Under the pieces are notes generated by a model. The model saw only the letters and a program-made list of their open reading frames with translations. It did no database searches and was not told the DNA's origin. The translations under genes were made by a program, and so were the position numbers. Shown here piece after piece: positions 12,189 to 26,903 of a stretch of DNA of 64,000 nucleotides (within the stretch, counting starts at the first letter, position 1; each line of letters opens with the position of its first letter). Source of the DNA: Patescibacteria group bacterium (lineage in GTDB: Bacteria; Patescibacteriota; Patescibacteriia; JACQRZ01); NCBI GenBank assembly GCA_038065255.1, contig JBBTRI010000004.1, positions 15,080 to 79,079 of the forward strand, read 5' to 3'.

Positions 12189-13181
12189 TTATTCTTCCAG
12201 AATCGATGCAAACATGAGCGGCGCAACAATCGTTGCGTCTGATTCAATGACAAACTGGGGTGTTGTCTCGTCAATCTTGCCCCATGTTATTTTTTCGTTT
12301 GGCACTGCCCCGCTATAGGAACCATAGGATGTCGTACTATCGGAAATTTGGCAAAAATATCCCCAGTAGGGAGCTGCCTCTTTGAGGTCCTGGTTCATAA
12401 GCGGCACAACACATATAGGAAAGTCTCCGGCAATTCCTCCACCGATTTGAAAGAATCCTACTGACGAGCTCCGAGAAGCCATGCGATACCAGTCGATAAG
12501 AAATGCCATTGTCTCAAGCCCTGATTTTACAACATGGTATCCGCTGAGTTCTTTTTTTATGACATTCGCAACAAACATATTACCAAGGGTCGAATCCTCC
12601 CAACCTGGTACGAAAATAGGAAGATTCTTTTCGCATGCGGCGATCAACCAGGAATGTTGTTCATCAATTTGATAGTGCTCCCTCACGAGATTCTCGCGAA
12701 TTACCTGATACATATACTCATAGGGAAAATACCGCTCCCCCGCTCTATCCGCTCTCTGCCAGACAGAAAGCACTGCGCGTTCAATGCGCCGCATGGCGTT
12801 TTCTTCAGGAATACAGGTGTCCGTTACGCGATTCATTGCTCGGTCTCGGAGTGCCACTTCATCAGACTTTGTGAGATATCGATACTGGGGAACGCGCTCA
12901 TACTCATTGTGAGCAACAAGATTGAATATATCTTCTTCAAGATTAGCTCCCGTACAGCAAATCGCATGAACCTTATCCTTACGGATCATTTCGGCAAGTG
13001 AAATGCCAAGTTCAGCCGTGCTCATTGCGCCGGCAAGCGTCAGAAACATTTTTCCGCCATTTTTCAGATGCGATTTATAGCTTTCAGTTGCATCTTTGAG
13101 TGTTGCGGCATTGAAGTGGTGGTAGTGCCGTGAAATAAATTCTGTCATGTTCATAGAATGCAAATTATGAATGTACACCAT
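12189..13181 (-). CDS. deoxyhypusine synthase-like protein (DHS / homospermidine-synthase superfamily)
   Basis: CCTGANLEEDIFNL and FFQIGGGIAGDFP resemble the TAGGVEEDL and GGGxxKHH NAD/spermidine-binding motifs of DHS-family enzymes. It is the last gene of the long minus-strand operon. Confidence 0.55.
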   Translation of the reverse strand: MVYIHNLHSMNMTEFISRHYHHFNAATLKDATESYKSHLKNGGKMFLTLAGAMSTAELGISLAEMIRKDKVHAICCTGANLEEDIFNLVAHNEYERVPQYRYLTKSDEVALRDRAMNRVTDTCIPEENAMRRIERAVLSVWQRADRAGERYFPYEYMYQVIRENLVREHYQIDEQHSWLIAACEKNLPIFVPGWEDSTLGNMFVANVIKKELSGYHVVKSGLETMAFLIDWYRMASRSSSVGFFQIGGGIAGDFPICVVPLMNQDLKEAAPYWGYFCQISDSTTSYGSYSGAVPNEKITWGKIDETTPQFVIESDATIVAPLMFASILEE

Positions 13182-13190
13182 TGTAATGCA

Positions 13191-14288
13191 CTACGCAGAC
13201 TTTCCCCACATGGCAACGTTTATATCGAGCCTATGAAGGCGGCGCTCAGTGCTGACAATACCCACAAGAGGACGCATGTACTCGCGGAGGGTTGGAAATT
13301 CAGCAATAATTGCCTCGCTTATCTCGCGATACATCCAGCGCGCACTTTCTTCTGCCGCTCGCCAGTCATCGTAATAGTCCGTATCCCGATCAAACGACTC
13401 GTTGACGAGCAGAACAACTCCATCTTTTTTGCTCACCCGCCCTTCTTCAATATTTTCAAAAATGATATGCGCGCCGGTAAGGCATGTTTTAATAAAATTA
13501 GGATCCCAGGATTTTATTTTAATGGCTGAGTTCCATGTGCGGATGTAATCAAACCTATTTCCCACAGCCAATATCCACTCATTATGGTCGAGATCTTCGG
13601 ATGAAACTTTTTCCGTCCGCTTCTTCATGACAAGCATGCGGTTGAAAAGCATGCGGTCTGTGAGAAATTGAATCATCCCCTGTGGCATTTCGGGATAAAG
13701 CTTTGGGAGTCTTTCTTTGAGAAGTGCTTCGCTCTCTTGTTCGGAATGCTGAATAAGCATAGTTGCTTCTAAAGTCTCATCTTTATTTCCATGAAGAATA
13801 ATAGAACGATCATCCGTATTGATTCCAACAAGAACGGTATACACCTGCCGAGTTCCCCCTTCGATAAAAAGTGTTCGTGTGACACGGTCAAATTGGTCGC
13901 GTACCGCAGTCTGGCCGGCAACGGCTTTTGAAGTGTCGTAGTCATACCCCTTGCAACAAAAATCTTTCCCTTGGGAAGAAAAGTGATAGGTAACAGGAAT
14001 CAGGAGCGCCTTCCTCCTCTCGCCGGCGCTTCGTACGCGCCGCTCAAAATGCGGTTTGAATGCCGGCCAACCAATGTCGATCATACCGCCAATAGTACGC
14101 ACCGGGTACACCCACGCAAACGGCGCACCGGTAGCTTCAGTAAAATCTGCTCGCCCGTCCATGCATTTGATCGCCATGACGCTGATATTATATTTGGTAT
14201 CAAAATAACGCCGGTCTCCCTCTGTTTCATGATAGAGGCGTTCGGCTTCATCGCTCATTTTTGAAATGCGATTAATAGGAGTTGGCAT
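13191..14288 (-). CDS. hypothetical protein (365 aa) encoded within the complex-I-like operon
   Basis: 4-bp and 10-bp gaps to its neighbours. It contains a CMDGR (C-x-D-x-R) motif and an H...CC pair. I recognised no confident family. Confidence 0.5.
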   Translation of the reverse strand: MPTPINRISKMSDEAERLYHETEGDRRYFDTKYNISVMAIKCMDGRADFTEATGAPFAWVYPVRTIGGMIDIGWPAFKPHFERRVRSAGERRKALLIPVTYHFSSQGKDFCCKGYDYDTSKAVAGQTAVRDQFDRVTRTLFIEGGTRQVYTVLVGINTDDRSIILHGNKDETLEATMLIQHSEQESEALLKERLPKLYPEMPQGMIQFLTDRMLFNRMLVMKKRTEKVSSEDLDHNEWILAVGNRFDYIRTWNSAIKIKSWDPNFIKTCLTGAHIIFENIEEGRVSKKDGVVLLVNESFDRDTDYYDDWRAAEESARWMYREISEAIIAEFPTLREYMRPLVGIVSTERRLHRLDINVAMWGKSA

Positions 14289-14291
14289 AGA

Positions 14292-25716: not shown

Positions 25717-26127
25717 TTAGGCATGGGCACTTTTTTGTAAATGGCGACGTAATGCATGGAGGCGTCCCGCATCGCTAGCATCGACGACAAGGTCTTGTGC
25801 TTTCACTCTGAATCCTCCGATGAGATCCGCATCGACAGTAAAGGAAATATTGCTCTTTTTCCCGTATGATGCATGGATCATTTCCTCGAACATCTTTTTT
25901 TCATTGGCAGTGGGTTGGCTTGCGGTTGTAATAGTTACGCGAACAGAGCCCTCGAGGCGACTTGTGACATCACGCAACGATCGTGCTACCGCACCTGCCG
26001 TTCGAAGCAATCCTTGCCTAGCTAAAAAAGATACAAATTCATGTATCATGGTATCAATCTGCTGATGTGTTTTGCCTTTTGCCAGAGCAAGGAGGCTTTC
26101 CGCATATCGCTGGGGGGCTATCTTCAT
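25717..26127 (-). CDS. atpH: F1 ATP synthase delta (OSCP) subunit, short form
   Basis: The call rests on position between atpF and atpA and on OSCP-like helices. At 136 aa it is shorter than usual. Confidence 0.7.
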
Positions 26128-26627
26128 ACGTTTTTTTTGAGCCGATCAACGGCTTTTTTAGCAAGATCTTTTGAAATCTTTTTTTCACCGCTTGTTTGTG
26201 CTATCGATGCAGATGCCTGCACAACGAGATCAACAATATCTTTTTTTGCATCTTCGAGCATTTGTTGTTTTTCCTGTTCTATGCGCGTCTTGGCCTGAGT
26301 AACAACGCGCTTCACTTCTTCACGAGTTTGCTTCACTGTTTCTTGCCGATGCTGCTCCGCTAATGCCGATGCTTCTTCCAAAATCTTTTCTGCTTCTTTC
26401 TTTGCCTTGAGAACGATTTGCTTATAGGTCTGGTCGGTGAGTTTCAGCTTCTCTTCAGCTGCATCGGCATCTGCCAACCCTTTTTCGATCTTTGCAGTGC
26501 GCTTTTCAAGCAATGCAAGAAGGGGCTTATACAAGAGCTTGTACAGGGCAAAAAAAAGAATTGCGAAATTGACAAGTTGGGCTACAAGCAACCTCCAATC
26601 AACACCGAGTGATGTGAGGATTTCCAT
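26124..26627 (-). CDS. atpF: Fo ATP synthase b subunit
   Basis: A single N-terminal TM segment followed by a long charged helix (KEAEKILEEASALAEQHRQE...), in the expected operon position. Confidence 0.75.
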   Translation of the reverse strand: MEILTSLGVDWRLLVAQLVNFAILFFALYKLLYKPLLALLEKRTAKIEKGLADADAAEEKLKLTDQTYKQIVLKAKKEAEKILEEASALAEQHRQETVKQTREEVKRVVTQAKTRIEQEKQQMLEDAKKDIVDLVVQASASIAQTSGEKKISKDLAKKAVDRLKKNV

Positions 26628-26648
26628 AGATGGTGTATGACTAAAAAG

Positions 26649-26903
26649 TTAAACGAACTTTATAAGGAGCGCTATAACAAGCGCATAAATGGCGATAGCT
26701 TCGGTAAACGCAATACCCAAAATCATGACCGTCTGGATCTTGCCTGACGCTTCAGGATTGCGACCGATTGCCTCAAGGGCTTTACCTACCAATAACCCGA
26801 TACCAATACCAGGACCAATAGCGCCAAGACCCATGGCAAGACCCGGTCCCAATGCTTTAGCCCATTCTACTGAAGCTTTTACAAGCTCTAAATTTTCCGG
26901 CAT
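26649..26903 (-). CDS. atpE: Fo ATP synthase c subunit
   Basis: The ATG at 26903 gives [52 protein letters not shown]..., a c-subunit hairpin with the conserved carboxylate ([17 protein letters not shown]). Confidence 0.85.

Follow-up and report, generated by a model that had tools for sequence, protein, structure and literature searches.

The window analysed here is a stretch of 64,000 nucleotides from the genome of a Patescibacteria group bacterium (contig JBBTRI010000004.1, positions 15,080 to 79,079). It contains F1Fo ATPase genes that run directly into genes for a six-subunit membrane module, which on sequence evidence is of the energy-converting hydrogenase related (Ehr) type, and then into a gene for a 365-aa protein, probably a carbonic anhydrase (CA), and a gene of the deoxyhypusine synthase (DHS) family. 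The locus also maps to contig CAYIQZ010000004.1 (81.5 kb) of assembly GCA_964365725.1 and to a contig from Hainich groundwater. Coordinates of the open reading frames (ORFs), together with Pfam and NCBIfam matches, place all of these genes on the minus strand, in the order atpE-F-H-A-G-D-C, EhrB-L-H-E-N-CD, CA-like gene, DHS-family gene. All eight F1Fo subunits (a, c, b, delta, alpha, gamma, beta and epsilon) have above-cut-off Pfam matches. The features from the promoter side onwards are listed below; labels of the form L003 denote individual comparison loci from other genomes or metagenomes.

26966..26993, minus: sigma-70-like promoter TTGACA-16-TACAAT, 11/12 by consensus scan, about 60 nt upstream of the atpE ATG at 26903
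26649..26903, minus: atpE, c subunit, 84 aa from Met18 of the ORF (PF00137, E 1e-18; the L003 homologue also has 84 aa)
26124..26627, minus: atpF, b subunit (PF00430, E 1e-24)
25717..26127, minus: atpH, delta subunit, 136 aa (PF00213, E 1.5e-18, profile positions 63-172 only)
24170..25702, minus: atpA, alpha subunit (PF00006/PF00306/PF02874)
23292..24167, minus: atpG, gamma subunit (PF00231, E 3e-82)
21888..23255, minus: atpD, beta subunit (PF00006/PF02874/PF22919)
21460..21876, minus: atpC, epsilon subunit (PF02823/PF00401)
20929..21456, minus: EhrB, NuoB/HycG-like small subunit (PF01058, E 4e-23)
18883..20925, minus: EhrL, HyfB/NuoL-like antiporter-type subunit, 680 aa (PF00361, E 6e-58; HyfB NF005086, 678 bits at a cut-off of 667)
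17943..18872 (alternative TTG start at 18923), minus: EhrH, NuoH/HyfC-like subunit (PF00146, E 2e-40)
17282..17938, minus: EhrE, HyfE-like membrane subunit with a NuoK-like C-terminal half (NF008556, E 6e-16, and PF00420, E 5.5e-4, both below cut-off)
15833..17278, minus: EhrN, HyfF/NuoN-like antiporter-type subunit (PF00361, E 4e-50)
14292..15836, minus: EhrCD, fused NuoC-NuoD/HycE/HyfG-like large subunit (PF00329 and PF00346)
13191..14288, minus: predicted short CsoSCA-type beta-CA, 365 aa (profile, fold and active-site comparison)
12189..13154 (or 13181), minus: DHS-family gene, 321 aa from Met10 (PF01916, E 1e-44)

The first-pass annotation of this DNA had the atp genes running with a 3-bp gap into a six-subunit module, and the ORF coordinates and domain matches bear this out, with 3 bp between the atpC stop and the EhrB start. 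Its statement that all junctions span 10 bp or less holds from atpC through the 365-aa gene, where gaps or overlaps do not exceed 4 bp save for a 10-bp gap between EhrL and EhrH, if the latter starts at ATG 18872 (this start agrees with 307-aa relatives, such as the orthologue in L173). It fails for several atp junctions of 11-36 bp (atpE/F 21, atpH/A 14, atpG/D 36 and atpD/C 11 bp). The list of atp genes from atpE to atpC was likewise right as far as it went, but it omitted atpI and atpB, which lie upstream (28518-29611).

Because the minus strand carries almost every gene of the 64-kb window, co-directionality alone is weak evidence of a common transcript. A terminator between atpC and the NuoB-like gene, which would speak against such a transcript, was sought by consensus scan, and no terminator-like site was found at this junction, at EhrCD/CA, or at any other junction of the unit from atpE to the DHS gene. 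Terminator-like sites number 18, against 19.9 expected from shuffled sequence, and the coding-strand ones within the unit are all intragenic. What goes beyond chance is the tight spacing, the terminator-free junctions and the fact that other lineages have the arrangement too. The probable transcription unit extends for about 14.8 kb from the promoter at 26993-26966 through the DHS gene; it likely starts there because atpI-atpB is separated from atpE by an extra gene, two hairpins and two promoters. The Ehr module is plausibly co-transcribed with atpE-C.

Redox ligands and ion path of the Ehr module

Ehr complexes are defined by homologues of the large, small and membrane subunits of group 4 [NiFe] hydrogenases, encoded in one cluster and lacking the NiFe ligands (PMC6349859, PMC10284858). 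The window module agrees with this definition in its Pfam and NCBIfam matches and in the alignments of its ligand sites, which support its placement as an Ehr-type, redox-dead relative of the group 4 enzymes. EhrCD, which has thousands of relatives (the closest 120 at 58-76% identity), finds its best PDB match in E. coli HycE (7z0s_E, E 3e-78). In the alignment to this chain, RVSGDSSFSHS replaces RVCGICGFAHS and NLSYSGND replaces DPCYSCTD, and all four NiFe-ligand cysteines are lost, three to Ser and the fourth to Gly. The substituted motifs SGD, H222 and PDFPLINKSFNLSY.G are invariant in an alignment of 20 among the closest 120 relatives.

The small subunit has suffered a similar loss. EhrB matches HycG (7z0s_G, E 1e-25), and three of its four [4Fe-4S] cysteines are replaced relative to that chain (Cys to Thr, Cys kept, Cys to Asp, Cys to Asp; the letters at the site, aligned to HycG and MbhJ, are GSTNACEQE, GDDA and GDPP), while the single remaining Cys is variable within the clade from the Candidate Phyla Radiation (CPR). 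The atp-Ehr unit has no NuoI/HycF/HycB-like ferredoxin-type gene; NuoE/F/G and NuoI genes are absent both from it and from the scanned window ORFs, and the window genes examined include none for a hydrogenase maturation protein. The loss of the ligands and the lack of a NuoI/HycF/HycB-like gene leave no place in the Ehr complex for any known redox cofactor. The module had been called redox-dead and Ehr-like from the first, and the profile and alignment comparisons, which could have revealed a NiFe hydrogenase with intact ligands, sustain that view.

A bona fide energy-converting [NiFe] hydrogenase, or a fragment of respiratory complex I, is therefore hardly a credible identity for the module, even though its best PDB matches are the E. 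coli formate hydrogenlyase subunits HycE and HycG and EhrB is entered at NCBI as 'hydrogenase' (MEK7648557.1). The ligand analysis refutes this possibility: the L1/L2 Cys motifs and the four-Cys N2 site of the small subunit that mark group 4 hydrogenases are missing, as are the N-module (NuoE/F/G) and NuoI that mark respiratory complex I, and no maturation genes are among the window genes examined.

The residues of a complex-I-type ion path are, on the other hand, in place: the Glu of transmembrane helix (TM) 5, the Lys of TM7, the Lys or His of TM8, the Lys of TM11, the Glu or Lys of TM12, and the NuoH glutamates are all found, except at TM8 of EhrN. In EhrL, all 54 homologues share E147, K229, H236 and E413, 53 have K358 (the remaining one has an X there) and 51 have K260. 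In EhrN, all 99 homologues share E134, K221, H228 and K339, and at position 394 there are 93 Glu and 6 Lys; the window protein has Asn in place of the TM8 Lys, a position with 43 Asn and 33 Lys across the homologues. EhrH has invariant E221 and E227 and nearly invariant E148 and E232 in 58 homologues.

A table of these motifs in about 90 loci shows that the substitution in the large subunit is common to nearly all Ehr, with the shared signature R(I/V)SGD...H and SFNLSY(S/A)GxD in place of the NiFe motifs. The loss of the [4Fe-4S] site, in contrast, is confined to the CPR-type clade. Ehr complexes fall into two classes: non-CPR Ehr, which retain all four Cys in the small subunit, and CPR-type Ehr, in which they are replaced, mostly by Asp, Asn, Ser, Thr and Glu. 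A monophyletic, cysteine-less CPR clade of Ehr that 'likely cannot interact with H2' has been described (Jaffe et al. 2020, PMC7304191), with no mention of a function, of ATP synthase or of carbonic anhydrase for that clade. According to a 2023 paper the function of Ehr 'remains unknown', and a 2020 study remarked that in Geobacter sulfurreducens its role in physiology had not been studied up to then.

The 365-aa protein and the linkage of atp, Ehr and CA genes

The gene that follows EhrCD was an unknown in the first-pass annotation, and its product is a 'hypothetical protein' at NCBI (MEK7648551.1). Profile, fold and active-site comparisons now indicate that it is a CsoSCA-type beta-CA with an intact Zn site, probably active and cytoplasmic. 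Matches of the single sequence are marginal (PF20686, E 0.007; TIGR02701, E 1e-4). A profile of 13 family sequences matches the CsoSCA structures 8THM (E 1e-9) and 2FGY (E 1.4e-8), aligning the active-site strings ikCmDGR with tpCaDGR, and YHFS...C. An AlphaFold2 model of the protein (pLDDT 86.6) has CsoSCA structures as its top five PDB matches in Foldseek (9g4t/2fgy/8thm, E 5e-17 to 7e-15, TM-score 0.69-0.73), with other beta-CAs coming next. The match spans both domains of CsoSCA (2FGY, 8THM, 9G4T), i.e., the catalytic domain and the ligand-less C-terminal duplicate, or pseudo-CA domain. Residues C42-x-D44-x-R46, H102 and C112, invariant in the family, correspond to the zinc ligands and the Asp/Arg dyad of beta-CAs.

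The protein differs from the carboxysomal enzyme proper. Carboxysomal CsoSCA has an N-terminal Rubisco-binding peptide and a helical N-terminal domain (PMC10614612). Only about 35 residues precede the catalytic domain of the 365-aa protein, which lacks the disordered Rubisco-binding peptide and the helical domain of about 100 residues, as well as a cso context: neither the unit nor the scanned window ORFs include carboxysome genes, and no Rubisco genes lie nearby. A DAB pump consists of DabA (PF10070) encoded together with DabB (PF00361), and the 365-aa protein has no match to PF10070.

A first, word-indexed search gave 12 relatives and the impression of a rare family, which was overturned by an exhaustive profile search (547 cluster-50 representatives) and a scan of species-representative genomes (at least 576 matches). 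Members come from Patescibacteria, Nitrosomonas, Rhodocyclaceae, Halomonadaceae, Nitrospirota, Myxococcota and Desulfuromonadales, and the proteobacterial ones are named by NCBI 'carboxysome shell carbonic anhydrase domain-containing protein'. In L022, L026, L030, L034, L075 and L077 the gene has paralogues in tandem or next to it.

The nearest relatives of the locus show three arrangements:

L173-175: atpH-A-G-D-C-EhrB-L-H-E-N-CD-CA-(563 aa)-DHS; CA 85% identical
L170/171: EhrCD-CA-UvrD helicase, no DHS; CA 90% identical
L003-5: atp operon-CA-DHS, no Ehr; CA 86% identical

Ehr is therefore either present or absent between atpC and CA among near relatives, and in three of them it lies exactly there, with 3-bp junctions. 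The 563-aa protein between CA and DHS in L174 (6298-7989), a 76-87%-identical relative, is absent from the window; it has no Pfam and no PHROG match.

The junction of atpC with a nuoB-like gene is not a one-off. Coupling of atp and Ehr genes is seen in at least six other CPR loci (L173/175, L016, L095, L097, L147 and L169); among 80 Ehr loci from metagenomes, the atpC-then-EhrB order returns in L095, L147 and L169, and in L097 Ehr stands just upstream of atpB. The order is atp-CA-Ehr in L016 and CA-Ehr in L002 and L012, and CA follows atpC or precedes atpB in about 10 other CPR lineages. Approaching the question from the CA side, we fetched 79 loci from species-representative genomes by CA similarity alone; within 12 kb of the CA there are DAB genes in 15, Ehr in 8 and the atp operon in 7. 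NuoL-type genes of any kind occur in 24 of 89 CA-like loci, and SulP in 9. The DabA neighbours belong to PF10070 (E 1.5e-253), seen only next to proteobacterial family members, and the SulP neighbours to PF00916. In a neighbour-joining tree, Ehr adjacency appears in at least three separate CA clades, with differing gene orders. Because the gene orders vary, repeated selection of the linkage can be argued. The atp operon adjoins 7/12 cluster-less CPR-type Ehr loci and a beta-CA-like gene 7/13, counts that are not phylogenetically corrected; the chance that, in a genome of 1 Mb, an operon of 7-8 kb and a randomly chosen gene lie within 10-12 kb of each other is about 3%.

The slot behind EhrCD may also be taken by another kind of CA. 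In L169, where the operon is atpA-G-D-C-Ehr, EhrCD is directly followed by a gene for a 318-aa Pro_CA_2 protein (PF20393; 11541-12497) with an internal duplication and CMDYR...HAQC motifs, in the same position as the CsoSCA-like gene of the window. Membership of this protein in the 365-aa family was considered and rejected, as hhalign covers only the CMDxR stretch (E 0.06); it belongs to a separate beta-CA-like family.

The CsoSCA-like gene is found within about 10 kb of DabB-DabA in 15 genomes, all proteobacterial or Nitrospirota: Nitrosomonadaceae loci L017, L020, L022, L036, L041, L044, L059-L061 and L080, and also L037, L049, L051, L069 and L089. The presence of a second CA beside a pump for dissolved inorganic carbon in these genomes raises the question of its role. 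A UvrD-like helicase gene stands beside the CA in 11 loci, mostly CPR (in L170 directly after it), and this adjacency looks like inherited synteny.

The Ehr complexes, the cysteine-less CPR clade, energy-coupled CAs and, at the level of annotation, CsoSCA-domain proteins outside carboxysomes are already known. A literature search retrieved no paper on the linkage of Ehr, the F-ATPase operon and CA, in agreement with the initial impression that the atp-Ehr coupling is not a described system. No report was found of the loss of the iron-sulfur (FeS) cluster as a CPR-specific trait of Ehr, of its joining to the atp operon, or of a short CsoSCA-type CA or Pro_CA_2 as the third partner.

A possible ion-driven carbonic anhydrase

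The first-pass annotation had thought of ion exchange, such as H+/Na+, or of a substrate yet to be named. Because the 365-aa gene encodes a CsoSCA-type CA, CO2/HCO3- becomes the candidate substrate, in preference to simple H+/Na+ exchange. We infer co-transcription, a physical or functional coupling of the CA to Ehr, the direction in which the ATPase works, and CO2/HCO3- as the substrate. The ion site of AtpE, I...E-A-I with no Gln and no Ser/Thr, when set against the I. tartaricus c-subunit motif, suggests that the F1Fo enzyme is H+-coupled.

In the reading that we favor, tentatively and at somewhat less than an even chance, Ehr and the CA would form an energy-coupled CO2/bicarbonate module, powered by a gradient made by F1Fo. 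The H+-type ATPase would hydrolyse ATP and build a membrane ion gradient in a fermentative host that has no respiratory chain. The six-subunit Ehr, with its ion-translocation apparatus whole and no redox cofactor, would use this gradient; lacking such a cofactor, it has no option but to be driven by an ion gradient or to convert one. The CA, supposedly cytoplasmic, would supply the chemistry of CO2 hydration, and ion flow through the antiporter-type subunits would be coupled, via the conserved NuoH/NuoB/NuoCD junction, to removal of the proton from CO2 + H2O -> HCO3- + H+. Hydration would thereby be pulled off equilibrium ('vectorial'), resulting in bicarbonate trapping and/or stabilisation of the cytoplasmic pH. 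The principle would be that of DabAB and cyanobacterial NDH-1MS/CupA, applied with another membrane module and another CA. The reverse scheme, in which bicarbonate dehydration drives ATP synthesis, was rejected on thermodynamic grounds, as there is no net force at CO2/HCO3- equilibrium. A more far-reaching version of this proposal, which we consider somewhat unlikely, is that the CPR Ehr represents a third independent recruitment of a complex-I-type machine to CA chemistry, after Cup/NDH-1 and DAB. It would be a 'complex I' wholly free of cofactors, on which a CsoSCA-type CA docks and hydrates CO2, with ion flow coupled to this reaction at the former NiFe/quinone junction and with the energising F1Fo co-expressed.

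Several observations weigh against an Ehr-CA module. Only 2 of the 80 metagenome Ehr loci carry a CsoSCA-like gene within 10 kb (L099 and L101, both Ehr-SulP-CA), and most of these 80 loci are non-CPR and keep the FeS cluster, so that a CA partner is not general to Ehr. In L003 atpC is followed directly by the CA, without Ehr, and the CA therefore works without Ehr. The 365-aa protein has no membrane helix, no DabA-like 'finger' and no obvious membrane-docking element, and a free cytosolic CA merely equilibrates CO2 and HCO3-. Patescibacteria are not autotrophs, and neither a carboxylase nor a bicarbonate transporter was found in the scanned parts of the window, which leaves the need for bicarbonate unexplained.

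Known systems offer partial parallels. Ehr, a concept dating from 2013, has been described with the same six-subunit Hyf/Hyc-like set and a large subunit devoid of NiFe cysteines (Jaffe et al. 2020, PMC7304191); the window complex differs in that its small subunit also lacks the FeS cluster and in that it is tied to the atp operon and a CsoSCA-type CA. The closest solved relatives are E. coli hydrogenase-4 and formate hydrogenlyase (Hyf/Hyc, 7Z0S), of which the window has HyfB/C/E/F/G-like subunits but not the NiFe site, the FeS clusters, HyfA/HyfH/HycB/HycF, formate dehydrogenase or the Hyp maturation genes. With Mrp Na+/H+ antiporters it shares MrpA/D-type subunits, the Glu/Lys chain and a gradient-driven mode without redox; Ehr adds NuoH, NuoB and NuoCD, and MrpB/C/E/F/G were not identified.

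Two further systems join CA chemistry to complex-I-type proteins. DabA has CsoSCA as its closest structural homologue, and DabB is NuoL-like (bioRxiv 10.64898/2026.05.01.722082; 10.64898/2026.03.13.711513). DAB pumps, which are driven by a cation gradient, thus resemble the window system in combining a CsoSCA-related beta-CA fold with a NuoL-type membrane subunit; the window CA differs in its length (about 350 aa) and in having no membrane 'finger', and its partner would be not a single DabB but a six-subunit Ehr with a peripheral NuoB/CD arm. For the cyanobacterial NDH-1MS/Cup complex, a redox-driven vectorial carbonic anhydrase has been proposed (bioRxiv 10.64898/2026.08.03.742399). NDH-1MS and NDH-1MS' with CupA/CupB are, like Ehr, complex-I-type machines; they are driven by ferredoxin/plastoquinone with intact FeS clusters, whereas the window Ehr has no redox input, and CupA lies outside the beta-CA-fold family of the window CA.

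Among the alternatives, it is rather unlikely, though it deserves attention, that Ehr is an Mrp-like cation/proton antiporter that interconverts the H+ gradient of the F-ATPase and a gradient of Na+ (or K+), with the CA merely supplying or buffering protons and bicarbonate near the membrane. The two Mrp/NuoL-type subunits with their invariant Glu/Lys pathway residues, the impossibility of redox input, and the occurrence of atp-Ehr without a CA within 10 kb in L095 and L147 are all in its favor, and if the c subunit is of the H+ type, as it appears to be, a separate Na+ cycle would need a converter. Yet Mrp needs no NuoH, NuoB or NuoCD, and these are the most conserved parts of Ehr (60-76% identity), with the substituted site invariant. 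Besides, the post-EhrCD slot is occupied by two unrelated beta-CA families, and the CA family of the window also keeps company with DAB and SulP, which together argue for an inorganic-carbon substrate. Less probable still is a partnership of the CA with the F-ATPase, in which it would feed protons to, or buffer pH for, an ATP-driven proton pump, and Ehr would be an independent neighbour inserted between them. CA II serves the V-ATPase in acid-secreting animal cells, and SulP, a homologue of SLC26, neighbours the CA in 9 loci. The CA directly follows atpC without Ehr in L003-5 and L006/7, and it stands beside atp genes, again without Ehr, in L008-10, L018, L023, L024, L026, L029 and L035. Such a pairing is at odds with CA-Ehr linkage in the absence of atp genes (L002, L012, L028, L064, L065, L078, L099 and L101), and with the exact placement of Ehr between atpC and the CA in the three relatives mentioned above.

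That there is no functional coupling at all, the adjacencies being inherited synteny in a streamlined, strand-biased genome with packed genes, we regard as quite improbable. The strand bias of the window, the uncorrected adjacency counts, and the repeated presence near the CA in CPR loci of a UvrD-like helicase with no obvious functional link are compatible with it; but the same neighbours come together again in several phyla, where the proteins are 30-60% identical, and with the genes rearranged (atp-Ehr-CA, atp-CA-Ehr, CA-Ehr, Ehr-atp and Ehr-SulP-CA), and the observed fractions of 7/12 and 7/13 far exceed the chance expectation. It is very improbable that the beta-CA-fold protein acts on carbonyl sulfide (COS), CS2 or a cyanate-derived molecule and that Ehr couples this other chemistry to ions. 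Some enzymes with the beta-CA fold, namely COS and CS2 hydrolases, do use the same Cys-His-Cys/Asp-Arg site, but the nearest relatives of the 365-aa protein in sequence and structure are true CAs, and the DAB and SulP neighbours are inorganic-carbon systems.

If an Ehr-CA module of the kind favored here exists, it would provide the first function for the long-orphan Ehr family, as ATP-powered bicarbonate trapping or pH control in ultrasmall episymbionts. Ehr is spread from Geobacter, Nitrospira and Rhodocyclaceae to Patescibacteria and has been assigned no function since it was named. The CPR Ehr is its extreme case, with no metal cofactor and yet with sequence conservation of 60-76% and an invariant 'rebuilt' active-site region. 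The three-way linkage makes the function of Ehr testable with established DAB assays, and would bear on the purpose of the F-ATPase in organisms without a respiratory chain and on the re-use of complex I modules in evolution.

The DHS-family gene and the flanking regions

The last gene of the unit encodes a protein with 100% identity to P0282 ('deoxyhypusine synthase family protein [Patescibacteria group bacterium]'). It has the PF01916 fold and the catalytic Lys of the WGK motif ('itWgKid' aligns with 'isWnKir' and 'vsWgKik' of archaeal DHS structures); none of the NCBIfam equivalog cut-offs is reached. Homologues at 70-77% identity are found in Omnitrophica, Acidobacteria and other phyla. 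In L179/L180 the homologue sits between an Arg/Orn decarboxylase and an arginase-family gene, i.e., in a polyamine operon, and in an Omnitrophica genome it stands alone. The gene likely codes for a polyamine enzyme of the homospermidine type. Its wide distribution as a polyamine enzyme, and its absence behind the CA in L170, the 90%-identical relative, mark it as a probable passenger, outside the proposed mechanism. Its candidacy as a protein-modifying partner was rejected on the same grounds, the 70-77%-identical copies lying in polyamine operons of unrelated phyla. Of the two extra non-membrane genes that the first-pass annotation counted in the system, the CA has thus become the key gene, and the DHS-like one probably does not belong. 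L014 (9914-12191, Peribacteria chromosome OZ246407.1) has a CsoSCA-like gene followed by a DHS-family gene 41% identical to that of the window, an arrangement that misfits the passenger reading.

On the other side of the unit, about 1.6 kb lie between atpB and atpE; they hold one additional gene, two hairpins that resemble terminators, and two strong promoters of the sigma-70 type, the second of which is the promoter listed earlier. The features of this region are:

29255-29611, minus: atpI, 69% identical to an L003 gene carrying PF09527
28518-29258, minus: atpB, a subunit (PF00119, E 2e-46)
27902-27885, minus: first terminator-like hairpin, between atpB and orf216
27877-27849, minus: sigma-70 promoter TTGACA-17-TATAAT, 12/12, upstream of orf216
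27227-27838, minus: orf216, conserved gene with a 70%-identical counterpart at the same place in L003
27215-27196, minus: second, near-identical hairpin CCTCGC...GCGAGG plus T-run, before the atpE promoter

Within the stretch 26955-28517 (minus), a small ORF with predicted membrane segments comes first after atpI-atpB. orf216 has no Pfam or PHROG match, and a 212-aa unknown gene between atpC and the CA in L008, considered as its possible relative, proved unrelated on comparison. The atpH product (delta/OSCP) apparently lacks the N-terminal domain, which normally contacts alpha, and has the same length in L003 and L173.

The surrounding genes (type IV pilus, UvrABC, MetRS, glycosyltransferases and many unknowns) make up a typical Patescibacteria set, and scans of the whole window found no Rfam family or tRNA. 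Downstream of the DHS-like gene, a PIN-domain gene and an 84-aa ORF (11506-12180, plus) form a convergent, VapBC-like toxin-antitoxin pair, beyond which lies a gene for a UvrD/AddA-type helicase-nuclease (8485-11400, minus).

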